A DNA stretch of 64,000 nt, from assembly GCA_001661245.1 (NCBI GenBank), contig KV454015.1, positions 1 to 64,000 on the forward strand. Direction: 5' to 3'. A program made the translations under genes and the position numbers. Positions 1,028-57,063 of this stretch are shown here, piece by piece. Source of the stretch: Pachysolen tannophilus NRRL Y-2460. Lineage: Eukaryota. The notes under the pieces are model-generated. The model was not told the DNA's origin, ran no database searches, and saw only the letters and a program-made list of their open reading frames with translations. Position 1 is the first letter of the stretch, and the number at the start of each line of letters is the position of its first letter.

Positions 1028-2227
1028 TTACACGGTCTCAGCTTGATGCCATCTTTCAATAAATCTACCAAATATTTTTTGGCTGTTCTCATAACCCACA
1101 GTTTTTGTACCTAAAGTCTTTCCTTTTGCATTATTCCAATCTTCGAATCGAATCTCCTCCCAATCTTTTAGTTTCTGATTTCTTGTAAAACCCAACTCTT
1201 TTAGCTTCTTTGAATTCAAAGGATCAGGGTCTAAAATAGAATTTTTTTTTGGATTCGCAAAATATATAATAACCATTCTATCATGGTTTCTTTGATCCAG
1301 AGGAGGTTCTGAGACTCTGTGAATACAAGCTTTAAAATATCCACCAGTAATGAATTCCAATGCATCACCAATATTTACTATTAATGACTGAGGCTTATGA
1401 TTAACATAACTCCACTTACCTGTAAAATAGTCAAAAATCTGTAAGGACAACATAGGTTGACTGGTGATAATAGAAAACCCACTAATATCAGAGTGACCTC
1501 TAAGCCATATATCTTGCTTATCATCGCGACCTTCATATAGCATAAATCTTCCATGTCCACCACCGGATTTTTCAACTTCATTTTGATAAATCTTGAAGTA
1601 ACTATCAAAGAGAAAACCTTCTTCAAGTCCAAGAATTAAATCACATAAATTCAATATTTTTTTGATTACAACATTATGAAGAAAATTGAAATAGTCACTA
1701 ATTTCCAGTTTATAATCCAAAACAATTTGTGGATGGCGTTGTTGATTTTGAAATATTTCATGATGTAAAAAATCTCTAAAGTTATAATGAGTAATTGCAT
1801 CACGTACACCCCCATTTTCATCTTCTTTTAATTTCCAATAAGCCTTTGGCTTAAACCCACTTCCTCTTTCACCACCAAGTCTTTTTTCATTATATTCTTC
1901 CTCATCTTCTTTTCGTGCGGCTCCTGATAAAAAAGAAAGTTTTTCCTCTTCGGGAATTTCCATCAAAGATTGAGATATACTTCTCAATTTCTCAATTTTA
2001 TCCCATGAATAACCAATATTAGTTATATTGAAAAACCCATAAGTGGTAATAGCATTTTCTAAAGTCTTTGCCAATTGACGTCTGGAAGAAATATTTTCCT
2101 CACCATATTTGAAAAGAGATAAATCAATTTCATCTAAACTAATAGTGGGCACTTCTGTCAACAACTTTGTTTCTGGAGGATCCAAAAATGGCCTCAAATT
2201 GTATTTTTCATCCTTTCTGTCAATCAT
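1028..2227 (-). CDS. 2-oxoglutarate/Fe(II)-dependent oxygenase (IPNS/DIOX-like family), substrate unknown
   Basis: N-terminal 'VPTISL...YGFFNITNIG' DIOX_N-like segment; HxD 'GHSD'; 'LIVNIGDALE'; distal His in 'ACIHRV'; Arg in 'RMVIIYF'. Confidence 0.88.
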   Translation of the reverse strand: MIDRKDEKYNLRPFLDPPETKLLTEVPTISLDEIDLSLFKYGEENISSRRQLAKTLENAITTYGFFNITNIGYSWDKIEKLRSISQSLMEIPEEEKLSFLSGAARKEDEEEYNEKRLGGERGSGFKPKAYWKLKEDENGGVRDAITHYNFRDFLHHEIFQNQQRHPQIVLDYKLEISDYFNFLHNVVIKKILNLCDLILGLEEGFLFDSYFKIYQNEVEKSGGGHGRFMLYEGRDDKQDIWLRGHSDISGFSIITSQPMLSLQIFDYFTGKWSYVNHKPQSLIVNIGDALEFITGGYFKACIHRVSEPPLDQRNHDRMVIIYFANPKKNSILDPDPLNSKKLKELGFTRNQKLKDWEEIRFEDWNNAKGKTLGTKTVGYENSQKIFGRFIERWHQAETV

Positions 2228-2353
2228 TATTATGTTTTATAAAAGTTCAATAATAGATCTTACCCAGCTACTTTATTATTGTTCAAAAAAAGAGACAAGT
2301 TCCAACTTGCAATCATTGACTTATCTGATCGTTATATAGCTTTTCAAAGGTAA

Positions 2354-2364
2354 GCCACAGTTTT
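2354..2364 (-). promoter_or_regulatory. Met31/Met32-type binding site (AAAACTGTGGC)
   Basis: GCCACAGTTTT on the + strand, the reverse complement of the AAACTGTGG(C) consensus, in the oxygenase/SEO1 divergent promoter. Confidence 0.7.
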
Positions 2365-2468
2365 ATCCCTTAAAAAAATCATTTGTTCCCCGAAAAAAAA
2401 AATATTTAAGCGAAAACTTTACTATACATATTGTCTTAACCCCATTTTGAACTGTGTAAGGCTGAAAT

Positions 2469-2477
2469 AAACTGTGG
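2469..2477 (+). promoter_or_regulatory. Met31/Met32-type binding site (AAACTGTGG)
   Basis: Exact AAACTGTGG in the same intergenic region. A degenerate GAACTGTGT lies at 2449-2457. Confidence 0.7.
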
Positions 2478-2707
2478 TTCTAGCATAATTAACTAAATGC
2501 ATCTACATTAATTACGACTAATTTTCAGTTATCGTTCAATTTTTAAGAGCTGATGAGAAATATTTTTTCAAAATGAAATATTTTTTTATTATTTCAAGGA
2601 ATTGTATATATAAGAAGTCATTTCCAATTACAAATCATGTTCATGTTCTTTCTAATTTAAGAGATCAGCTAGTGAAAGAAAGAACTTCAAATTGAAAAAA
2701 CAAAAAA

Positions 2708-4363
2708 ATGGCCAAATTGCCGTGGTTTATCCCACACTATAGAGAGATTCCCTTTGAAGATGTTAAGGTTGCTGACGAAGATAGTTCACTGGCATCAGAT
2801 AGTATTGCTGATATTCAATCTTCTACCATAATTAAGATAAAAGAATACAGAGATGAGGCTGAAAGACCTTGGTGGAAATTCTTTGATGAGTATGAATATA
2901 GATATACAACAGAAGAGTCAAAAACACACCGAGGTTTTGATAATGGTAAAACTAAAGAGGAGAAGACTCTTCTTTGGAAATTAGATATCCTCATCTCGTT
3001 ATACGCTTTTGTAGGCTACTGGCTTAAATATGTGGACTCTTCCAACTTGACGAATGCCTACGTTTCCGGTATGAAGGAAGATATTGGTATGAAAGGAAAT
3101 GATTTGATTGACGCTCAAGTATATTTTTCTGTTGGAAATATCATTTTTGAATTGCCTTGGATATTTTTATTACCTAGAATATCAATTACTTATTCCTTAG
3201 GTTTTTGCGAGTTTTTATGGGCTATCTTCACGCTTTGTCAATATAGGATTCAAACTCCATCTGCGTTATTTGGTTTACGGTTTTTGGTTGGTGCGGCAGA
3301 AGCAGCATATTTTCCATGTATTCATTATATTTTTGCGAATTGGTATAGACCTACTGAAATAGGTAGAAGGGCTGGTTTTTTCTATATGGGCCAGTTTTTA
3401 GGAATTTTAACTTCTTCGCTATTACAGGCCAGTGTGTTTGATAATTTAGATGGTACCAATGGGTTGGCTGGTTGGAGATGGTTGTTTATAATTGATGGTA
3501 TTATATCATTTGCTGTTGCAATTTTGGGCTTTTTGCTTCTTCCAGGAACACCAACTAGATGTTATTCTATTTGGCTCACCGACGATGAAATCAAGTTGGC
3601 TAGAACAAGAATGATAAACGAAAGAGTTGATATTTCTCCTTCGGTCAAATCCTTTTTTGATAAGAAGACATGGAAAAAAATGTTAAAATCATGGCATTTC
3701 TGGCTTTTAAGTTTCTTACAAATGTTTGGATTTAATACCAACAGTGCTTCAAGTGGTTCTTTTGCGCTTTGGTTAGAATCTTTAAATAAGTATACAACCG
3801 GTCAACTTAATAACTATACCGCAATACCTCCAGCGTTAGGTATACTTTGGATTATCATAGTTTGTTTTGGTGCGGATTTAACAAAAAAGAGATTTCTATT
3901 GATCATGTTTTCTTTTCTTATGAATTTCATTGCAACTGTAATGTTGGCAATATGGGATATACCTGTGAGCGCAAAATGGGTAGGGTTCTGTCTAGCTTAT
4001 TGGTCATGGTCACAATCATCTGTTTTTAATCCTTTGATTCATGATATTTTAAGGCATGATCAAAATTTGAAATCCATAGAATGGATGGTCATATATATTT
4101 TAGGTTTACAATCCTCTGCTTGGGTCTCAAGACTTGCTTGGCCAACAGTAGACTCTCCTAGGTACTTTTCTGGATTTTTAAGTTGTGCAGTATTCAGCAT
4201 TGCGTTTATCATCGGTATTTCTTTTGCCTATGTTCTTTACAAAAGGGATGAAAGAAAAAATGCAATTAAAAATGGAATTTATGTATATAATAGTGAAAAA
4301 GGTGAGTCTCCTGAAGACTTACAGATCGAAGAAGTTACAGAGATTGTTCCCGAAAAATCATAA
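2708..4363 (+). CDS. SEO1: MFS anion:cation symporter (allantoate permease family), Seo1-like
   Basis: Seo1-type N-terminal motif 'EYRDEAERPWWKFFDEYEYR'; 'NAYVSGMKEDIGM'; 'GLAGWRWLFIIDG'; about 12 hydrophobic segments. Could be a SEO1 paralogue. Confidence 0.85.
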   Translation: MAKLPWFIPHYREIPFEDVKVADEDSSLASDSIADIQSSTIIKIKEYRDEAERPWWKFFDEYEYRYTTEESKTHRGFDNGKTKEEKTLLWKLDILISLYAFVGYWLKYVDSSNLTNAYVSGMKEDIGMKGNDLIDAQVYFSVGNIIFELPWIFLLPRISITYSLGFCEFLWAIFTLCQYRIQTPSALFGLRFLVGAAEAAYFPCIHYIFANWYRPTEIGRRAGFFYMGQFLGILTSSLLQASVFDNLDGTNGLAGWRWLFIIDGIISFAVAILGFLLLPGTPTRCYSIWLTDDEIKLARTRMINERVDISPSVKSFFDKKTWKKMLKSWHFWLLSFLQMFGFNTNSASSGSFALWLESLNKYTTGQLNNYTAIPPALGILWIIIVCFGADLTKKRFLLIMFSFLMNFIATVMLAIWDIPVSAKWVGFCLAYWSWSQSSVFNPLIHDILRHDQNLKSIEWMVIYILGLQSSAWVSRLAWPTVDSPRYFSGFLSCAVFSIAFIIGISFAYVLYKRDERKNAIKNGIYVYNSEKGESPEDLQIEEVTEIVPEKS

Positions 4364-4787
4364 AAAAATGTGCATCTCAAGACTCATTGATATACGCTTT
4401 TTAGTTTTTTATTGGAGTTTTTATTGTTGAACTAGATTTATTATTATCGCTTTCAAAAAGTTGCACTTGTAGTAATTATCTAAACCCAAATGATTGATTA
4501 TGGTATTGTAGTTCTTATCTCCTTGTACTTGTTAGGTTTTCTTCAATAAATGACCAAGAGCAGAAGTATCGATGATCATCAAAAATTACTTATTAACCTT
4601 TGTAAAAAAGAAAGAAAGAAAAATAAAAAAATAATTTAAACTGAACAGCCGTATATGTCCTTTGCCTATCAGTAAACATTGGCTCATTATACTACAGTAA
4701 GATAGTATATAAATAGAGAAACAAATAATTCATCGCTTCTTGGAATTGTGCTTCTTTTTTTCGTAGTTTATAAATAATATATATAGA

Positions 4788-5579
4788 ATGTCATATTATC
4801 CTTCAAAGTCAGATTTAAAACCACTTGGTGCTATTTGTCTTGATTACACTGATGATATTCATAGGCCTCCAGGAGATCCACTAAATGAGGAATCGTTTTC
4901 GTTTCCCTTAGTCCATGAGATGGTTTCAAATGCAACTCTATGGAAAATTGTGCAATCAGAACCTTATACAGATGAATTTTTACAATATTTTGTAGATGCT
5001 TGCGAAAAATTGGCTGAAAAGGGAGCAATTGGTATTATCACTTCGTGTGGATTTTTAGCGCAGGTTCAAAAACGTCTCTCTAGTAAGATTTCTCTTCCAC
5101 TTGCTTCCAGCAGTTTATTGCAAATCCCTCAAATATTATGCATTAGGCCAGAAAATGAACATGTCGGTGTTATCACGTTCGATGAATCTGTATTAAGTGA
5201 TGTGCACTTTGATGGTGTTGGAATAACTTCAATTATGCGAAAGAGAATTAATGTAATAGGTGTTCCAGAAAATGGTCTGCTCAGGGGAGTTATTAGAGAC
5301 GGAAAGCCTTATATCCATGAAGAATTAAAACTAGAAATGATACAATGCGCCATTGAATTAATTGCACGTAATCATCAGATCAAAGTTATTGTCTTGGAGT
5401 GTACTCAAATGCCACCATTTGCTAGGGCAATCCAAGAGGTAGTTCGTTTGCCAGTATACGATGTTATAACCATGATCGATTGGTTTTATTCTGGTCTAAA
5501 TTGTAGATCCATCCCAGAAGATAAGAATAAGGAAGCAGGGCTCAGAAAGAGATTGAGAAGCGGAAAAGAAAAAAAATAA
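4788..5579 (+). CDS. Aspartate/glutamate/hydantoin racemase superfamily protein
   Basis: 'HRPPGDP' N-terminal motif and two catalytic-type cysteines, 'ITSCGFL' (C87) and 'VLECTQMPPF' (C205). Confidence 0.85.
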   Translation: MSYYPSKSDLKPLGAICLDYTDDIHRPPGDPLNEESFSFPLVHEMVSNATLWKIVQSEPYTDEFLQYFVDACEKLAEKGAIGIITSCGFLAQVQKRLSSKISLPLASSSLLQIPQILCIRPENEHVGVITFDESVLSDVHFDGVGITSIMRKRINVIGVPENGLLRGVIRDGKPYIHEELKLEMIQCAIELIARNHQIKVIVLECTQMPPFARAIQEVVRLPVYDVITMIDWFYSGLNCRSIPEDKNKEAGLRKRLRSGKEKK

Positions 5580-5773: not shown

Positions 5774-6679
5774 CTAAATAACATGGATTTCGTTCGATAA
5801 TTCGTTCCATAATTTTAATTTGTCTTCAAATTTCACACTAGCAACTAATCCAGAAGTATTAGGAAAAACGTATACCTTACAATCATAACCACAGAGGTCC
5901 TTTAATTTCTTCAAGACACACTTATAGCTTTCGTTTGTAACATTTTCTTGCAATCCCCAGTCAAAAATAGTTTTTTCCAATTTTAATTTCTTGATTCCCA
6001 ATATTTTTGTAATGTATAATACTATAAATTCCCAAATTCCTTTGCCGACAATTACAACAAATTTTGGTTTAGCAAAACTTAATTCTTTAATTAACCTAGG
6101 AACATTTTCAAGTTTTTCCAAATGAGTTAATTCTTGTGCTGATCTAGTGCAACGCAAAATTAAATCAGTAAAGCCTATTCCGTATTTTACCAAATCAAAA
6201 TCATTTTCAGCTTTTACTTGAGTTGAATAAATGTTACTTGAACTTATTATTAAATCTCTAAGTAATGAGTCTTCCTTCATTTTATCTTTAATTGAAACAT
6301 TACTGGCTAATAACACTTTTAACAAAATCTTTGATTGATTGAATAACTTCCAAAAAAGATTTGTAAAATGCGCATAATGATGTTGCTGAAGTGATGATTC
6401 AACACCGGGGTTGAAACCTATGAAGATAATCTTCAAGTTTTCATCTATTGAAGGTTGCAAATCTTTGTATTCCGATTCTAGTGGAGTTGCTGTTGCTGTT
6501 GCTGTTACTGTTGTTAAATCATTAGAATGTAATTTCACCTTTTTCTTCGTCACTGGCTTCTGTATTTTATTTTTCTCTTCTAATAAATGGGCGTTTTTGG
6601 ATGATAACTTTCTAGCTTGATTTCCAATATATCTATATGATTCAAGGTTAGCGTTAAACACATCTCTTGATGAACTCAT
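5774..6679 (-). CDS. G/U mismatch-specific uracil/thymine DNA glycosylase (TDG/MUG family)
   Basis: 'FIGFNPG' catalytic motif, 'HHYAHFTNLFW', 'GIGFTDL', 'PNTSGL'. Confidence 0.9.
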   Translation of the reverse strand: MSSSRDVFNANLESYRYIGNQARKLSSKNAHLLEEKNKIQKPVTKKKVKLHSNDLTTVTATATATPLESEYKDLQPSIDENLKIIFIGFNPGVESSLQQHHYAHFTNLFWKLFNQSKILLKVLLASNVSIKDKMKEDSLLRDLIISSSNIYSTQVKAENDFDLVKYGIGFTDLILRCTRSAQELTHLEKLENVPRLIKELSFAKPKFVVIVGKGIWEFIVLYITKILGIKKLKLEKTIFDWGLQENVTNESYKCVLKKLKDLCGYDCKVYVFPNTSGLVASVKFEDKLKLWNELSNEIHVI

Positions 6680-6903: not shown

Positions 6904-8340
6904 CTATATACCATTAGAAGCACAGGTAAAGACACTTCCATAACTATCACTTTCATAACTTAGAATAATACTTTCAACACTTGCATACAAACCTGGACCT
7001 AAGATGTAAAAACCCAGTAATATTAAAAAGATATTTATGAAATATTCAATTTTCTCTGTTGGGTTCAATTTTGGGAATAAGTGACGAACTTTGCAACCAT
7101 ATTTCGATTGTTTTAACCTGAAAAATGCTGTACCCCAAAAGACAAAACCAAACCAACAATCAAACAAAGAAGACATCAAAGATAACAAATCAGAAAAAAA
7201 AGGAATAACTTCTGCGATAATAAAGGCTAATATCCATAAACCAATGTTGGTTGCAACCCAAACAACCCAACCTTTTCTTGTATGAGAGAATCTATGTTCT
7301 GAATCTGGTGGGAAAAATTGGAAAAATAAAAATTGTGAAGAGACATTACCGTATAATGCACCTAAAAATGCAATTGTTGGTATAGCAAATGAAAAAGCAA
7401 TGATTTTATAATGACCTGATAATGAACCAAAAGCTGGAGATATCATATAATAGTTACCCACATAGACATAAATTATAGACCCAGCTAATGCAAAAGTGAT
7501 CAATTCACAAATTGTAACAACATAAAGAGCTTTTTTAAATTCTCGAGGATTTTTCATTTCGGCAATAAACGAAGGATAAGTTATTTGTCCAACAAAAGTA
7601 TATACAATGTTTAAAAAAGCAGACATACCACTTACATAAGTGGTGCCTTGAACTGGCCATAAATTATACTGCACTGGAGTACCATCCCAACCATCTGGAT
7701 GTGTCTGTATACCTGCAAAGATTAAAGATAATAAAACAGCAATAAACATTGTTGCAGCAGAAAAAATTCCAACAAGTGACATTTGAGAAAATGTCCTTGG
7801 TAAAGAAATAACCAAGCAAATAACAGCAGTTGCCACGGAAAATCCAACAGTACAACCCCCATGATTAGAAACAGTATTTAAATATTTAGCACCAACTAAA
7901 ACATGTAAACCTTGAATCAAAATATTATTTAAAAGAAAACAAATTGCAGTTGCATACCATGCCCATTTTTGACCCCAAAATAAATTTTGACCAATATCAC
8001 AAATATTTTGAGTCTTTGGATGTTTAATACAATAATCAGTAATAATAAGTCCAGTATATAGTACTGTTAAAGCAACAAACACTGTAAGTATCAAACCTGG
8101 CACAAGACCAAGAACAGAATAAGACCAAGGAAAACTCATAATAGCAAGACATATATATTCTGAAAATAAAAGTCCGGCTGTTCTTTGCCAAGAACAGGTA
8201 CGATATTTTATATCATGACCATTCTCCTGATTAATCTCATTTTCGAAAAATTGTTCGGTACTGCTATCTTCAAATACATCCTTAATTTCTGATTTTGAAT
8301 AAGTCTCTTTTTCAAGAGAAGGAGGACCATAGTTAGACAT
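6904..8340 (-). CDS. Neutral amino acid permease (AAAP/Aa_trans family, Mtr-like)
   Basis: 'YRTCSWQRTAGLLFSEYICLAIMSFPW', 'FIAEMKNPREFKKAL', 'IAEVIPFFSDLL'; about 11 TM segments. Confidence 0.9.
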   Translation of the reverse strand: MSNYGPPSLEKETYSKSEIKDVFEDSSTEQFFENEINQENGHDIKYRTCSWQRTAGLLFSEYICLAIMSFPWSYSVLGLVPGLILTVFVALTVLYTGLIITDYCIKHPKTQNICDIGQNLFWGQKWAWYATAICFLLNNILIQGLHVLVGAKYLNTVSNHGGCTVGFSVATAVICLVISLPRTFSQMSLVGIFSAATMFIAVLLSLIFAGIQTHPDGWDGTPVQYNLWPVQGTTYVSGMSAFLNIVYTFVGQITYPSFIAEMKNPREFKKALYVVTICELITFALAGSIIYVYVGNYYMISPAFGSLSGHYKIIAFSFAIPTIAFLGALYGNVSSQFLFFQFFPPDSEHRFSHTRKGWVVWVATNIGLWILAFIIAEVIPFFSDLLSLMSSLFDCWFGFVFWGTAFFRLKQSKYGCKVRHLFPKLNPTEKIEYFINIFLILLGFYILGPGLYASVESIILSYESDSYGSVFTCASNGI

Positions 8341-8787
8341 AGTTTAGGTTATATCCTTTACCTCGATAAATAATAAATATATATGGTACTATATAATATA
8401 ATATGTATATGTATATGTATATGTATATATTATACTTGCGTCACAAACAAGTGAAAATTTATATATATAAATATATATATAAATATATATTATGTATGTC
8501 TTGAGAAGAAAATCAATAGTAAATAGTTGATCTTCAGAGAAGTTAAAGAACTTTTATATAATCGGTTATCTTACTACTACAGACTACTAAGAATTTAATG
8601 AAAAATAGAAGTTGCTGTCATCGATCAATTTTTATTTTTTCAACTAAGCAGCACCACAACAGATCAAACGTACCTGCAGCCACAGTGCTCTCATCATTTG
8701 ATTGCATATCTACCAATTCCGTCATCTTCTGTCAATTGCCATTTTTTTTTTGCTTGGGTTCAAAAAAAAAAAAAGATGTGTTCCATT

Positions 8788-8794
8788 TCACGTG
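8788..8794 (+). promoter_or_regulatory. Cbf1 (CDEI)-type site TCACGTG, with a Met31/32 core GCCACAGT at 8679-8686
   Basis: Both motifs are read directly in the divergent permease/DDL1 intergenic region. Confidence 0.5.
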
Positions 8795-8906
8795 TTAGAA
8801 GCTAAATTTAAGAACGAATAAAGTCAAGTACGTATGTAATTGATTTTTAAGGTAGGATTTTCTTCTTAGCATTTAGATAACGATTTTGCGCTATCTATAG
8901 AATTCA

Positions 8907-11249
8907 ATGCTTAAGGCCAGTAAATTTTATACCAACTTTAGGAGTTGTGTAGCTAGTATTAGCAGCGAGACTATTCATTTTAGTCATAATCTTGTGAGAA
9001 ATCAGGTTAAGCTTTCTCGAATATGTTTTTATAGAGGTATTCTGTTTTCCAAGAAACGCAGTAATAATGGGTGGTACATAAGCAATAATACCGGTATTAG
9101 AAATGTTTCTTGTGGTTGTGTAAAGGAAAAAATTACTGATGATGGATTAGTTTTTGGTGGTGGGGGGAAGACGGTTAATGTTAGATGGTTTTATGCAACT
9201 GATATTCCAAATTCTAAACCATTTCTTCAATTTTATGAAAGAAAAGAAGACCCGAAAAAATTTCTTCCATTTTCATCAGAGGATTCTAAAATATTGGAAG
9301 AGCAATATCAGAAATATCTTACGTTCAAGAAAAATGGTAATGTCAAGTCATCGGATTTGATTCCAGGGTTCCCATTAAATTTGGTTCCAGTCAATGAAGA
9401 TAGATTATTTGAATGTGATCTCAATTTACTTGAGATGAAACCAATTTATTGGGAAGGTAATTCTTATGAGATTAGGCGAGGCTTGTGGTTCAATAAAGAT
9501 GGTGTTCCTGTCTCCAAGGAATTGTCTAATGAATTGGAACAAGGTTATCAAGATCTTGTGATAAATACAAATATTATTGAAAAAAATTTTAAAGATATCG
9601 AAAAAATTTCTAAAAAAATTGTTCTTAAATCCAAAGAAGATAAACGAAAAGATTTGAAAATGGTTGTTTATGGTAAAGATAATACAGCATATATTATTCC
9701 AGATCATTCTTTTGCAAGATTTCAACTGAGTTATCTTACAAAAGCCCCTCCTGCTGCTTTATTAGGAGTTGAGAAATTTACTAGAGGTTACCAAAAAGAT
9801 AAGGCAAAAGAAAATGAATCAGAAAGACAAACTAATGATGATTCTTTACTAAATAATTATCAGCAAGAAATACTTAATGTTTTAAAGCTTGAAGTTAAAC
9901 CAAAAAATGATGATCTGTTAAAGAAAGTAATTCCAAATGAGCTTGAAAATGATTATAAAAATAAGTCCAGTAATGAAAATAGTCGACAAATTGACCATTT
10001 AGTCATATGTGTACATGGTATAGGACAAATATTGGGTACTAAATTTGAAAGCATTAATTTTATTCACAGTATAAATGTTTTAAGGAAAACAATGAAGACT
10101 ATTTTTAAAGAAAGTGAAGAGTTACAGAAAATTGCATATCCTAATGTTGAATTTACAAAAACATCGCCAAATTATGATCCAAAACTAATTAAAAATATCA
10201 AGGAAAATTGTAAGGTTCAAGTATTACCAATACTTTGGAGAAATAAAATTGATTTTGATAAATCTGTAAAAGATCATGTTTCGAAATTACCGACATTATC
10301 AGAGATTACAATAGACACTGTTCGTCCATTAAGGAATATTTTGGGGGATATCTTATTGGATGTTTTATTATACTATGAACCAAGGTACTTGAATATGATC
10401 TTGGATGAGGTTACCACACAAATCAATGATGTTTACGCTACTTATCTCAAGAAAAATCCAGGTTTTGAAGGAAAAGTCAGTTTTGTTGGCCATTCATTGG
10501 GGAGTGCAATTTTATTTGATATATTAGCCAGACAACCGGATCATGTAAATTTACATAGTGACAAGGATAAAATTTTAAACTTCGAAGTTGAGAATTTTTT
10601 TGCTGTTGGATCACCAATCGGTGTTTTCAAACTATTGAAACATTGTAACATTGGCCCAAGAGAATTAAATCCATTCAATGGTGAAAGTGATGTCAAATCA
10701 TTAGCCTCTCCAAAAGTTAAAAATTTTTATAATGTTTTTCATCCTTGCGATCCTGTTGGCTACCGCATTGAACCCTTAATTGATAGAGAGTTTGCAAACT
10801 ATAAACCTGCAATTATCCCATTTGCTTCAAAAAATATTGACAGTCAATTAAAAGACTTATCAGAGTATGGAGATCAATTGACAAGTAAAGTATTGCAAAA
10901 TTTGAATAGTGTAATATCAAATATTGCCCTACTCAAATCTAAAGCAGAATCAGATCTGAAGAATAATAATTCAGAAACAGCTCAAAATTCATTGGTTTCA
11001 CCTAGGGCATTACAAATCATGACTAAATGTAACTATAGTGGAAGAGTCGATTATTCTTTGCCTGAAGGAATATTTGATATATCTCTTTTTTCTGCTATTG
11101 GCTCACATGTTAGTTACTTTGAAGAACCTAATATCAGCGGATTTTTATTAAATCAATTATTAACGAAAAAAGAATCTGTAAAGGACAAGAGCGTTACTTT
11201 ATTGAATACAAATTCTGATGATGAGACTTTAAGGAAATTGAAATTCTAA
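8907..11249 (+). CDS. DDL1: DDHD-domain phospholipase A1, probably mitochondrial
   Basis: 'VRWFYATDIP', 'VHGIGQ', lipase motif 'GHSLG', 'FHPCDPVGYRIEP', 'RVDYSL...SHVSYF'; adjacent to SFM1. Confidence 0.9.
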   Translation: MLKASKFYTNFRSCVASISSETIHFSHNLVRNQVKLSRICFYRGILFSKKRSNNGWYISNNTGIRNVSCGCVKEKITDDGLVFGGGGKTVNVRWFYATDIPNSKPFLQFYERKEDPKKFLPFSSEDSKILEEQYQKYLTFKKNGNVKSSDLIPGFPLNLVPVNEDRLFECDLNLLEMKPIYWEGNSYEIRRGLWFNKDGVPVSKELSNELEQGYQDLVINTNIIEKNFKDIEKISKKIVLKSKEDKRKDLKMVVYGKDNTAYIIPDHSFARFQLSYLTKAPPAALLGVEKFTRGYQKDKAKENESERQTNDDSLLNNYQQEILNVLKLEVKPKNDDLLKKVIPNELENDYKNKSSNENSRQIDHLVICVHGIGQILGTKFESINFIHSINVLRKTMKTIFKESEELQKIAYPNVEFTKTSPNYDPKLIKNIKENCKVQVLPILWRNKIDFDKSVKDHVSKLPTLSEITIDTVRPLRNILGDILLDVLLYYEPRYLNMILDEVTTQINDVYATYLKKNPGFEGKVSFVGHSLGSAILFDILARQPDHVNLHSDKDKILNFEVENFFAVGSPIGVFKLLKHCNIGPRELNPFNGESDVKSLASPKVKNFYNVFHPCDPVGYRIEPLIDREFANYKPAIIPFASKNIDSQLKDLSEYGDQLTSKVLQNLNSVISNIALLKSKAESDLKNNNSETAQNSLVSPRALQIMTKCNYSGRVDYSLPEGIFDISLFSAIGSHVSYFEEPNISGFLLNQLLTKKESVKDKSVTLLNTNSDDETLRKLKF

Positions 11250-28468: not shown

Positions 28469-29156
28469 ATGGATAGGAGTGATAGCCATCCCCCTCTTTA
28501 TCCTTTGTTGAATGTTGAACCTAGCATCAGATTTAGGACTTTGAAAAATGAAGAAAATGATTATTCATCAGGGGTAGAAAGGCCATATAGGATAAGGATA
28601 GTAAATAATTATAGTAATCAGCATGGTGGTAGGACCGCTGTTACAGGTAGCCTCAATAACAATAGTAATAACAATAACAATACAGGTAACGCTAACGTTA
28701 ACTCTAACTCCAACGCCAACGCCAACGCAAACTCCAGCGCTAACATCAGCGCCAACACCAGCACCAGCACCAACAATAGTGATAATAATACCAGCTCTTC
28801 AACTGAAGATAACAACGAATCAGGATCTGCGATGTTACTTGTACAAAATGGTATAAATAATAGAACACCGCTGCAGGCGACTGTTCTGGATAGGTTTATT
28901 CTGTCAGGTTTTGCAAGGTCTTCAAATTCAAGAAAGAGAAATATTGATGATCAGCGCTTGAATATTAGTACCTTGAGGTTAAATGCTGATGAAAATATTA
29001 AAAATGAAATTTTAAACAATACAATACCAACACCTGTATCTTATACTTCAAATCAAATACCTAATAATGAAGATAACAAAATGACCAACATCAACGCCAA
29101 TACTAATACTAATACCAATACCAATTCCAACACCAACACTGCCAATACTACTACTA

Positions 29157-29194
<38 letters not shown>

Positions 29195-31228
29195 ACTTCA
29201 ACTTCTAATGGTACAAATAGGTTAAGCTTGGATTCTCCACCAAATAAGAGAAGATTACTAAATGATAGTAATAGTTTCAGCAGCGTTAATACAACTACTG
29301 AAGATTCAAACCAGAATCAAATGATACCGCCTTCTTCAAGTTCTAATAATAGCAGTAATGACACGGACGAACAGCAACCACCTTTGCCATCACCTAGTGC
29401 TTCTCCTATTCAATCTCAAAATTATGAAGATGACGAATTACTTATTGATGATAATGACGAAGAAAATTGGAAAAAAGATGCATTTTTAAGAATACCGAGA
29501 ACAGAAAAAGAATTAACTTCAATGATTGAAACTTTAATAGAGTTCTTACCACCAGATTCTAAAGGTAGAAATGCTTTAACTTGGAAATTGTTATCTCAAA
29601 CTAATAGAACAAGCTTATCAATCTTAAATAATACAATGAATAAATCTTTGAGAAGAGATTTAATTAGTAATTTACCTTTTGAAATTAGTTCAAAAATTTT
29701 AAGTTTCTTGGATTTTAAAAGTTTGGCGAGATGTCAACAAGTTAGTACCAATTGGTTCAAAATTGTAAACAAGTCTAGTAATATCTGGAGAGATTTGTTA
29801 ATAAGTGATAAATATGTTAAAGGCGAAGATGAAATTTTTCAAGAGCTTTCACAGAAACAAGAATTATTGTCCCATTGGTTCCAAAAAGATGAATTAATCC
29901 AAAATTTAGTAGATGAAACAAATAATGGTTCACCGCAAGATTTACTCTATAAAACTTTGTACAAAAAAAATCATTTAATACACAAAAGATGGATGGATCC
30001 AACCTATCAACCAAAGAGAATCAGTATTAAAGCTCATGGACGTCATGTAATTACATGTTTACAGTTTGATAATGAAAAAATCATTACAGGTGCAGACGAT
30101 AATGTTATAAACATTTTCTCTACTGCTACTGGTGCTTTGAAAACAGCTTTAAAAGGCCATACAGGTGGTGTTTGGGCATTAAAGTATTACGGCAATACTT
30201 TAGTTTCAGGTGCTACAGATCGAACTGTTAGAATTTGGAATATCAAACAAGGTAGATGTACCCATGTCTTTAGAGGACACACTTCTACTGTTAGATGTTT
30301 GGATATATTGACTCCTGTTCTGATTGGATTTTCTTCAACAGGTGAAAAGATTATGTTTCCGCCAGAGCCTTTATTAATTACAGGTTCCAGAGATAATAAC
30401 ATTCATGTTTGGAAGTTACCAATAGCCAATGAAGACGATGAAGATAATGGCATTTTGGTTGATGAGGCAGAAACCGAAAACCCTTATTTTATTAAAGCTT
30501 TAAGAGGTCATACTGCTTCCGTTAGATGTATATCCGGTTACGGTAATATTGTTGTTACTGGGAGCTATGACATGACTGTTAGGGTATGGGACTTGATGAC
30601 GAATAGGTGTAAATTGGTTTTAAGAGGTCATGCTGATAGAGTCTATAGTACGGTATTAGACATTAAAAGAAATAGATGTATTTCAGGTTCAATGGATTCA
30701 ACTGTTAAAATCTGGGACTTGGAAACAGGCTCTTGTATGGCTACTTTGGATGGTCATAGTTCTTTAGTTGGATTATTGGATTTATCTGACACAGCACTAG
30801 TCAGTGCAGCTGCTGATTCAACATTAAGGATCTGGAATCCGGATAACGGTGCCTCCCGTTTCCAACTAAAGGGTCATCTTGGTGCTATAACATGTTTCCA
30901 ACACGATGATAAGAAAGTTGTAAGTGGTTCTGAAAGAATGCTCAAGCTATGGAATGTCACCACTGGAGAATTCGTTAGAGACTTACTTACAGATGTAACT
31001 GGAAGCATATGGCAAGTAAGATTTGATCATAGAAGATGTGTTGCCGCAGTTCAGCATCGTAGTAATGACGGCGATGAGACAGTCATTGAAACAGTCATTG
31101 AGATCTTAGATTTCGGTTACCCATTATATAGTAACACCCCACAAGAGCTTGAAGACAATCCCGTCATGATGACCAATCTCCTACCAGGAGTAGATGATGA
31201 CGGTGATATCGAACTTCAATATGCATAA
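28469..31228 (+). CDS. CDC4: SCF F-box/WD40 substrate receptor Cdc4
   Basis: F-box 'DLISNLPFEISSKILSFL'; WD40 repeats 'VITCLQFD', 'GHTGGVWAL', 'GHTSTVRCLDI'. First ATG is at 28469. Confidence 0.95.
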
Positions 31229-54813: not shown

Positions 54814-57063
54814 CTACTCATCTAAATCTTTAGTAAAAGTTTTAATGAATTGAAACGTTTCACTCATCAACGCAACAACTCCATTATTACCTTTTTCTTC
54901 CTCAGTGCCCTTGGTTTTCTTAATAACATTTTTATCATCAGAGAAATAGGCATCTACCTCATTTTCAACTTTAGAAAAACCTTCATCGTAAATTACATTC
55001 CTCAAAGCCAAAATTAATTGAGGAGAGAATTCATTGTACCATCTATGATTCCAAACAGACAATTTAACACAAACATTTAATAATTTTAAATCTATGTCTT
55101 GTATTGATCTTCTAATAAATTCAGGTGTTAATTTAGAATTTTTTTCTTGTGAAGATTGTTCATAATTTTTTAATTTCAGTTTTTCTGCTTGATAATAAGC
55201 TAATACTTTTCTTGAACTTCTAATTGAAAATCTACCAGCTAAAGCTTTTTCAAAAGCGGATGCAGCTTCTTTAAAATTTCTTAGTCTATAGGCAACTAAA
55301 CCTAATAATTCCCATTCTAATGATGTTTTCTCATAAGACATTTGTTGTGCTTGAAAATGTACTTGTTCCGCTTGCCACATTGTATATTGTCTTAAATCTT
55401 CATATAATAACATAAACAAATTATCCAACCATCTTTCACATAATCTTTTTTTCTTAAATTCTTCAATAATCTGTTCACTATTGCTTGCATTTTTACTCTG
55501 TCCGCCAGAATTAACAGATTTTAATGATTGAGTTGTACCATTTGTTACTGAAGTTGATAATGGATGTTGTGATCCTGAAATATCCAACTTACTATTTGTT
55601 GCATCTTTCTTATATTCATCTTCCATAACGAAAACTTTTGCTCTATATCTTAATAAACTTTCCCAGCCAGTTTTATGAACTATTTGAGTTAATAATTCAT
55701 AACTTTTAGAAAAAGTTGTTTTCAAATTATTTGCAGGTAAATTAACTAAAGCAGGATCAACTTGTTTTTGTTCAGCAATAACTTCTTCAGCGTGTAATGT
55801 TGAAACTTCATCTAAAGTGACATCCATTGGTAAAGGTAAATGTAAAGCATTTGGATTTTTAATATTTGTACATCTTCTTAAATGGAATTTTTCCTTATGA
55901 GTAACCATTGGACAAGAATTTAAAGTTAACAAGGCATTTTCAATGTCATTGTTTGCAATATATGTTTTCACCAAGATTGACCAAGGTAAAAATTCTGATG
56001 GAGCAGATCTAACAGCACGCATTGCTGCAACTAATGCATAATCCAATACATTTTTATCAAGACAATATTTTGCTTGTAAAGTTAATAAACTTGCATCTCT
56101 TGGATTTAATTTAATACCATCATGCATTAATTGGACCAGCTTTACTTCTTCATCTTTCATTAATAAGACTTGAACAATTAAGCTTATAACGCTTGGATCT
56201 TTTAAATGTAATTCTTCCAAGATTTTCATAGCATAATCATATTCATTAGTTAATTCCAAGACTTTTAAAAAACAATCAACAAGATAATTATTTGTATTAG
56301 TTGTTAATTGAATAGTTTCATTTGATCCTAATTTATAACCATCAAAGAATAAAGTTTTAAAAGCATCTAAAAAATATCTAACATCTTCAATTGTTTTAAA
56401 ATAATTAATTTTTCTAGTTTCTACCAATTGACCAGTAAAATCTTCTTCTTCATCATCATAAGTCAATATACATCTAACTAAACTTGTTAAATAAGTTTCC
56501 AACCATAATCTATCATTATCTGCAGAATAAGTATCACCATTTATATCTACAAATGATGATTCAATTCTCCCCGGTATATGAACTGTTACTCTAGTATCCA
56601 TCTTACTAAAAGCATTAAATGCACAATATGTAGATTGAATAACATTAAAATGTTTATGCTTACCATACCACAATTGTGGTTGGAAATTAATTACTTGAGC
56701 AATTCCTTGTAAATGAACAGCAACTTGTGCAGCATTTGAAACATCAACTCCAGTATAATATAAAAAAGTTGTAACTTTTTTCTCCGGATTAGACGCTGAT
56801 ACTTTACATAATTGTAAAAGATCTGGTGGTCCTAAATCTTGAATATTAGCCAACCGGGTAGTTCTTTGTTCAATCGATTGGTTTGGATACTCTTCAACTA
56901 CTCTATATTAAATCAATACCATAAAAGAAAAAGAAAAAAAAAAAGCAATGAAAGTTAGTATTTTCCTCTCGTATAAAAATATAAAAATATAAAAAGTACC
57001 AAGAATTATTTCTTATTATCAAATTACGTACTCTGGAATAGATCCTTGAGTTGTTGGAAGCAT
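54814..57063 (-). CDS. BCH1: Exomer cargo adaptor (ChAP family, Bch1/Bud7), 2 exons
   Basis: Exon 1 57063-57032 (MLPTTQGSIPE); intron 57031-56903 (GTACGT..TACTAAC..TAG); exon 2 in frame to 'QDLGPPDL', 'ALLTLNSCPM', 'KRLCERWLDNLFMLLYEDL'. Adjacent to TAF9. Confidence 0.93.

Follow-up and report, generated by a model that had tools for sequence, protein, structure and literature searches.

The chromosome end analysed here is a window of 64,000 nucleotides from the yeast Pachysolen tannophilus NRRL Y-2460 (GenBank assembly GCA_001661245.1, contig KV454015.1, positions 1 to 64,000 of the forward strand), in which a Fe(II)/2-oxoglutarate (2OG) oxygenase gene and a major facilitator superfamily (MFS) permease gene are transcribed divergently from a common promoter shortly after the telomere. 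We put at about 0.6 the probability that these two genes form a conserved sulfur-scavenging unit, in which the permease would import an organosulfur compound and the oxygenase would free its sulfur, under a promoter switched by Met31/32 and Met4. The pair is thus probably an unstudied way of scavenging sulfur, with the racemase-family gene that follows it probably a bystander. The use of organic sulfur by fungi is poorly mapped: apart from one dioxygenase of the TauD type, one sulfatase, and a small number of carriers, no components have been given a role. An earlier reading of the sequence (the original prediction) had joined the first three genes past the telomere, a 2OG oxygenase, a permease, and a racemase-family gene, into one module; their identity and order are borne out by the open reading frames (ORFs), all three intronless, and by Pfam. 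The features on which the argument turns are as follows.

1028 to 2227, minus strand: Fe(II)/2OG oxygenase, DOXC/IPNS-like, 399 residues (PF14226 DIOX_N and PF03171 2OG-FeII_Oxy)
2228 to 2707, no strand: divergent promoter common to the oxygenase and permease genes, 480 bp (ORFs and motif scans)
2355 to 2363, minus strand: Met31/32-type site AAACTGTGG, with the extended form AAAACTGTGGC at 2354 to 2364 (exact-motif scan)
2449 to 2457, plus strand: degenerate copy GAACTGTGT, weak, the core lacking its final G
2469 to 2477, plus strand: Met31/32-type site AAACTGTGG, followed by T (exact-motif scan)
2708 to 4363, plus strand: MFS permease of the Dal5/anion:cation-symporter group, 551 residues (PF07690 MFS_1, homologues, and tree)
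4788 to 5579, plus strand: two-Cys protein of the Asp/Glu/hydantoin-racemase superfamily, 263 residues (PF01177 Asp_Glu_race, NF005679, alignment, AlphaFold2 (AF2) model, and Foldseek)

The shared promoter is best read as a sulfur switch of the Met31/32 type. The two exact copies of AAACTGTGG (core CTGTGGC) stand in opposite orientation within the 480 bp, one of them carrying the extended ...GGC end, with the site at 2355–2363 lying 128 bp upstream of the oxygenase ATG and 345 bp upstream of the permease ATG, and the site at 2469–2477 lying 231 bp upstream of the permease ATG. The original prediction had described two such full sites, and their presence exceeds chance: exact AAACTGTGG occurs three times in the window against 0.58 expected, a count reached in none of 100 shuffles, and for at least two copies of AACTGTGG in one 480 bp stretch the probability comes to 2.5e-4 when estimated at the rate of the window itself, or 2.7e-5 from base composition. 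The site it had placed at 2354–2364 corresponds to the extended form AAAACTGTGGC, which encloses the exact 9-mer. It had also listed a degenerate third site and a GATA site; both are present, the former at 2449–2457 and the latter as CTTATC at 2320–2325. GATAAG is found in 37 copies in the window, or about 0.28 per 480 bp, and since it stands at chance level in both promoters the GATA site carries no weight. Control of the pair by GATA factors through nitrogen catabolite repression was rejected on the same frequency.

The motif recurs upstream of relatives of the oxygenase gene. For six independent members of the family, upstream sequence totalling 5,265 bp contains five copies of AACTGTGG, compared with six copies in the remaining 59,117 bp of the same loci. 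The upstream copies lie at positions -161 to -445, so that five of the six loci carry the motif within 445 bp, and the site is conserved in this sense; the locus lacking one (L002) is covered over only 590 bp upstream. The spacer shared by the two genes on metagenome contig L001 also contains AATTGTGGCT and ATTGTGGC, the former being the AAYTGTGGCT motif reported for sulfur-starved Candida albicans (PMC13170222).

Expression data for Candida members of the family point the same way. Candida parapsilosis CPAR2_407220 falls in the 90% cluster of P0050, a tree member that is identical to the ORF of locus L007. Met32 motifs are listed for this gene, and its log2 fold changes on Cys/Met starvation are 4.8 in the wild type, 0.35 in a met4 deletion, and 3.7 in a met28 deletion (PMC11502921). 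The same study names orf19.1366 as the orthologue in C. albicans; that gene, C2_09850C_A, has log2 fold changes of 9.1, 9.7, and 2.0 in three starvation comparisons and of -4.97 in met32, whilst the neighbouring 'putative monooxygenase' orf19.1365 rises by 7.8 log2 on starvation (PMC13170222). In C. albicans sulfur starvation raises expression of the family hundreds-fold, in a Met32-dependent manner, which puts it among the genes that respond most strongly there, with its substrate not assigned. A Met32-type site stands about 190–220 bp upstream in this Candida group, which comprises orf19.1366/orf19.1365 and CPAR2_407220/CPAR2_407210 and shows strong Met4- or Met32-dependent starvation induction. 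Loci L004 and L005 match the orf19.1365/orf19.1366 arrangement, with a luciferase-like monooxygenase followed by the oxygenase and AAAAAAACTGTGGCTGC at -220; their oxygenase ORF sits beside P0059 in the tree, the 90% cluster of which holds C. albicans proteins. The Candida genes belong to the same oxygenase family as the window gene, but to another clade, in which the neighbour is a luciferase-like flavin monooxygenase and not a permease. The oxygenase gene of that clade directly follows a Bac_luciferase flavin monooxygenase gene (L005:5054-8245, L007:5247-8239), and at L006:2810-9229 an FMO-like gene comes after the oxygenase gene, followed further downstream by a gene for an M20 peptidase. 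Flavin monooxygenases of these kinds have been tied to the use of sulfones, sulfoxides, and sulfonates (PMC11502921).

The place of the oxygenase family in the Met4/Met32 regulon is therefore already in print, only as an unnamed '2-oxoglutarate dioxygenase'. The two studies (PMC11502921, PMC13170222) list the Candida members under that description and assign no substrate, with the C. parapsilosis paper grouping CPAR2_407220 with TauD-type enzymes (PMC11502921). A second Met32-bound '2-OG dioxygenase' of C. albicans, a candidate member of the present family, is CR_04500C_A, or orf19.541. Where the motifs stand, how they are conserved, and what the Candida data show together lead us to infer that the pair of P. 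tannophilus would be under the same control, and the Met31/32-type regulation put forward in the original prediction gains support both from the recurrence of the motif upstream of relatives and from the Met4/Met32 dependence of Candida family members.

The oxygenase and the permease form a real conserved unit, their genes being directly adjacent in at least six other genomes. On metagenome contig L001 the permease gene (6327-4482, minus strand) and the oxygenase gene (7001-8158, plus strand) are divergent and 673 bp apart, and since they are flanked by BRF1 and SDA1 this pair is not subtelomeric. The pair bears consecutive locus tags in Yamadazyma tenuis (PSN45_004758/004759) and Priceomyces carsonii (PRCAT00002488001-2490001) and consecutive accessions in Scheffersomyces xylosifermentans (KAK6456801/02), and Kuraishia capsulata carries a five-gene array in which three permease genes alternate with two oxygenase genes (KUCA_T00002375001-2379001). 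Indirect evidence of linkage comes from 12 contigs apparently common to the oxygenase and permease match lists, matched by equal size, with contig 6790, common to P0040 and P0522, providing one further case. As a separate observation, the L001 permease gene carries a canonical yeast intron of about 105 nt (GTATGT...TACTAAC...AG; L001:5363-5611), which is absent from the window copy.

The evolutionary histories of the two proteins also agree. The oxygenase tree holds 115 entries (P0001-P0110 minus one entry shorter than 350 residues, plus six ORFs from the loci, with L005 excluded as 98% identical to L004), and places the window protein in a clade of 27 entries with SH-aLRT support of 97. Linkage to a permease is recorded for 13 of the 27, most of the others lying on contigs too short to tell. 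The permease tree, built with FastTree from the window protein and the listed matches of at least 450 residues, clusters the window permease with the partner permeases of the same genomes, in groupings that match those of the oxygenase tree. Both window proteins are basal in the linked clade, beside Kuraishia and CTG-clade yeasts, a placement compatible both with ancient vertical inheritance followed by losses and with a transfer of similar antiquity. The recurrent linkage of all three families that the original prediction called for is thus found for the oxygenase and permease, and the racemase is linked to them nowhere else among the genomes seen. No description of a permease-oxygenase pairing was found in the literature covered, which excluded most subscription journals and bioRxiv supplements. 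An oxygenase subfamily tied both physically and evolutionarily to one Seo1-like permease clade offers a practical route to its substrate.

The permease scores 105.8 bits against PF07690 (MFS_1) and 111 bits against TIGR00893, the latter under its cutoff, with its homologues, which carry the names SEO1, Seo1p, or vitamin H transporter, placing it in the Dal5 group. Its nearest relatives, at 52–63% identity, are found in Yamadazyma, Scheffersomyces, Priceomyces, Kuraishia, Ogataea, Pichia, and Brettanomyces, followed by a second tier at 41–46%. The permease tree has two main clades, with the window protein outside that holding SEO1. Clusters of the SEO1 clade contain C. parapsilosis SEO1 (CPAR2_203100), CPAR2_203280, a Candida orthopsilosis 'Seo1 permease', proteins of Lodderomyces and Candida auris each labelled 'MFS transporter (Seo1)', and members from Yarrowia and Geotrichum, and the window permease is 41–46% identical to the C. 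parapsilosis and C. auris proteins of this clade. The original prediction of a Seo1-type permease therefore holds for the branch of the family and fails for the orthogroup: with the true SEO1 orthologues placed in the sister clade, the name 'Seo1 permease' claims too much. The Seo1 branch would then include, in addition to the gamma-Glu-Met transporter, one or more other specialised carriers. SEO1 is itself the sister group of the biotin carrier VHT1 (PMC2329640), and one close homologue of the window permease (P0157) is labelled 'vitamin H transporter', its sister paralogue being labelled Seo1p. The ESM Atlas returned only generic 'MFS transporter' clusters for the permease, giving no discrimination between SEO1 and VHT1. 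A side observation concerns CPAR2_203090 (C. albicans orf19.699), the gene next to the true SEO1 in C. parapsilosis, which is also induced on Cys/Met starvation, with log2 fold changes of 1.5 in the wild type, 2.7 in the met4 deletion, and 3.4 in the met28 deletion; a literature search on orf19.699 found nothing.

The oxygenase matches PF03171 at 55.2 bits (cutoff 23) and PF14226 at 42.7 bits (cutoff 27.3), with no match to PF02668 (TauD) at E<=0.01 and no matching family in NCBIfam. Its assignment to the IPNS/DIOX type and not to the TauD/Jlp1 type thus stands, whereas its description as an orphan was mistaken: a search at E<=0.001 gave 114 relatives, which apart from some in Rhodotorula-type basidiomycetes belong almost entirely to budding yeasts, the top foreign match being from Kuraishia capsulata at 56% identity. 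An alignment of 27 family members has 60 invariant columns, which include the iron triad H245, D247, and H303 and the 2OG arginine R317, and on this basis the catalytic residues appear intact. A profile search of the PDB aligned HSD...HRV...R-x-[V] of the family with HSD...HRV...R-I-S of feruloyl-CoA 6'-hydroxylase (F6'H1; E=1.3e-20), setting the invariant R317 against the Arg of RIS and V319 against its serine, a position occupied by V, G, or A in relatives, so that the 2OG arginine is kept and the serine of the RxS motif is not.

The AF2 model of the oxygenase (pLDDT 89.2, pTM 0.91) has a double-stranded beta-helix (DSBH) fold, with the top 30 Foldseek matches all being DOXC/IPNS-type enzymes. 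These plant and fungal structures, among them HSL1/HIS1, Neurospora crassa thymine-7-hydroxylase, anthocyanidin synthase, ACC oxidase, T6ODM, and IPNS, share the fold and metal triad of the window oxygenase (E down to 1.2e-21, TM 0.6–0.8) at 17–21% identity. The window family differs from them in a four-residue insertion after HRV, in a C-terminal extension ending GRxxERWH, and in the replaced RxS serine. Nothing in the fold points to a particular substrate.

As a sulfur-scavenging unit, the pair would work as follows. On sulfur limitation a zinc-finger factor of the Met31/32 type would occupy both sites and recruit Met4, and the two genes would then be transcribed outward from the 480 bp promoter. 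The permease, a proton-coupled MFS carrier and Seo1-like paralogue in the Dal5 family, would import an anionic organosulfur compound, and the cytosolic DOXC/IPNS-like oxygenase, with Fe(II), 2OG, and O2, would oxidise that compound or its product and so render the sulfur assimilable. Transport direction, substrate, and reaction are what we infer from family membership and the conserved pairing. The substrate might be, as a guess, a thioether or sulfoxide amino-acid derivative or a gamma-glutamyl conjugate, hydroxylated next to sulfur; this chemistry is favoured, again as a guess, because the enzyme class includes O-demethylases and hydroxylases and because members of the other oxygenase clade have flavin monooxygenase neighbours. 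A more specific proposal, which we offer tentatively and would sooner doubt than accept, is a non-TauD oxidative route freeing sulfur from thioether-type compounds, whereby the Seo1 paralogue would import a conjugate and the DOXC oxygenase would hydroxylate the carbon beside the sulfur to yield an aldehyde and a thiol. Candidate compounds for such a route may include S-alkylcysteines, their sulfoxides, and gamma-glutamyl conjugates such as gamma-Glu-S-methylcysteine. If it were true, the oxygenase family would be the missing enzyme for non-TauD thioether chemistry in pathogenic yeasts.

Two systems of Saccharomyces cerevisiae invite comparison. The SOA1 and JLP1 genes of the sulfonate route are not known to form a divergent pair, and JLP1 is of the TauD type (PF02668), in contrast to the DIOX_N and PF03171 domains of the window oxygenase. 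This route likewise comprises a Dal5-family importer and a Fe(II)/2OG dioxygenase under Met4 (PMC11502921, PMC13170222). Seo1p, a specific gamma-Glu-Met carrier with functional orthologues in C. auris and C. albicans, belongs to the same Dal5-family branch as the window permease and has sulfur-repressed expression (PMC7617739), and its gene is likewise subtelomeric (PMC2329640). The window permease differs from it in belonging to the sister clade and in having an oxygenase partner, none being described for Seo1p, the cargo of which is degraded by Dug2/Dug3 and Ecm38 and not by an oxygenase (PMC7617739).

Several observations weigh against a sulfur-scavenging pair. The window permease lies not in the SEO1 clade but in its sister, and several of the linkage calls rest on equal contig size and not on inspected sequence. 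Outside the clade of 27 entries the oxygenase is mostly without an adjacent permease, with none within the available flanks of L003, L005, and L007. The third exact copy of AAACTGTGG lies at 1096–1104 (minus strand), within the oxygenase ORF, which indicates that the 9-mer can occur without function, and no Cbf1 site (CACGTG) is present in 2228–2707; Met32 alone governs the sulfur-utilisation genes of C. albicans (PMC13170222). Furthermore, the usual RxS serine is replaced by Val, Gly, or Ala across the oxygenase family.

Some of these points would suit an alternative in which the pair is sulfur-regulated, but the oxygenase acts in signalling, in protein or nucleic-acid modification, or in detoxification, with the permease working alone. 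Such a role is compatible with a family that has no assigned substrate, whose nearest solved structures, at 17–21% identity, represent many chemistries, and whose other clades mostly lack an adjacent permease. Isp7 of Schizosaccharomyces pombe, a protein of the 2OG-Fe(II) oxygenase family and perhaps a relative, is described as a regulator of amino-acid uptake, which would also suit this alternative. We nevertheless consider it unlikely, as retention of the head-to-head pairing together with matching enzyme and transporter trees is the usual signature of a shared substrate, and Kuraishia has amplified both genes together as an alternating array.

The racemase-family protein scores 35.8 bits against PF01177 (cutoff 31) and 214 bits against NCBIfam NF005679 'hypothetical protein', under the cutoff of 231. 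Its description as a two-Cys racemase proved correct, with C87 (TSCGF) and C205 (LECTQMPP) invariant in 29 sequences. The AF2 model (pLDDT 92.9) shares the fold and the two catalytic cysteines of the superfamily, with Foldseek returning arylmalonate decarboxylase and aspartate, hydantoin, and glutamate racemases at E of about 2e-8 and TM of 0.5–0.66; no solved structure in the PDB matches by sequence at E<=0.1. The nearest named relatives come from Lachancea, Zygotorulaspora, Ogataea, Pichia, and Wickerhamomyces, lineages without a listed oxygenase of the linked clade, and a fungal homologue (P0304) bears the depositor label 'DMSP lyase'. Eleven bacterial relatives were found at 35–42% identity, mainly in Methylobacterium and other Alphaproteobacteria. 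The neighbours of seven of these were scanned, with DAO-type FAD oxidoreductases beside four, amino-acid ABC transporter parts beside four, and an amidase beside one, a context that fits an enzyme acting on an amino-acid derivative. These bacterial contexts do not tie the racemase to sulfur or to the oxygenase-permease pair.

The original prediction held that the permease imports a sulfur-containing amino-acid derivative, that the racemase inverts its stereocentre, and that the oxygenase then cleaves it. The three genes are indeed consecutive, the racemase keeps both catalytic cysteines and the fold, its bacterial neighbourhoods make an amino-acid-like substrate plausible, and the gene lies between two putative sulfur-type promoters, the second with a Met31/32-like and a Cbf1-like site (8679–8794) 3 kb on. 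However, no racemase gene lies within the 15 kb of L001 that hold the pair, and a comparison by eye of the match lists found no contig common to racemase and pair other than the window's own record. Seven named species have an oxygenase of the linked clade, and of these P. carsonii alone is among the named racemase matches, with the racemase on a different contig. Conversely, Lachancea, Zygotorulaspora, Ogataea, and Pichia carry a racemase but no oxygenase among the matches listed. Additionally, the racemase promoter (4364–4787) contains no TGTGG core, compared with 0.54 expected by chance. The three-gene module is therefore very unlikely, and the racemase-family gene is probably a separate gene for an amino-acid derivative.

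The least likely alternative of all is that the motifs stand there by accident, with the two genes devoted to some other nutrient, such as a vitamin-like anion taken up by a VHT1-like carrier and then modified, for whilst the sister relationship of SEO1 and VHT1 (PMC2329640), the name given to P0157, and the lack from the permease clade of the early-branching yeasts found in the SEO1 clade would suit it, the motif is enriched in the window and in relatives, family members have published Met4/Met32 dependence, and most names of close homologues, including that of the sister paralogue of the 'vitamin H' protein, point to SEO1.

The remaining features of the chromosome end, which has a G+C content of about 30% along the whole extent of the window, are the following.

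1 to 278, no strand: telomere array of 30.9 perfect copies of the 9 bp unit CCACTCACA, with 100% matches in Tandem Repeats Finder and zero variation
5774 to 6679, minus strand: uracil-DNA-glycosylase (UDG) superfamily protein, 301 residues (PF03167, 44.6 bits)
6904 to 8340, minus strand: Aa_trans amino-acid transporter gene (Pfam)
8907 to 11249, plus strand: DDHD-domain gene (Pfam)

No ORF of at least 80 residues lies between the telomere array and position 1028. The UDG-superfamily gene separates the racemase and Aa_trans genes, and from about 9 kb onward housekeeping genes are found, among them those for Rad52, Ndc1, guanylate kinase, Sec16, Taf9, and Med6. The spacer between the Aa_trans and DDHD genes (8341–8906) contains CACTGTGGC at 8679–8687 and TCACGTG at 8788–8794, about 100 bp apart. 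Met31/32 and Cbf1 sites together are the classic arrangement of MET promoters. With only three copies of CTGTGGC and two of CACGTGA in the whole window, the occurrence of both in this spacer raises the possibility of another sulfur-type promoter at a distance of 4 kb from the pair. Judged from these Met31/32-like and Cbf1-like sites, the Aa_trans gene may belong to a wider sulfur-responsive chromosome end.

Two minor observations were made further along the window. A 919-residue F-box and WD40 protein of the Cdc4/Met30 type is encoded at 28469–31228 (plus strand), with no CTGTGG in its upstream region. A perfect palindrome ACCACAATTGTGGT, formed by two overlapping copies of AATTGTGGT, lies at 56667–56680, 66 bp upstream of a ChAPs-family gene (54814–56601, minus strand).

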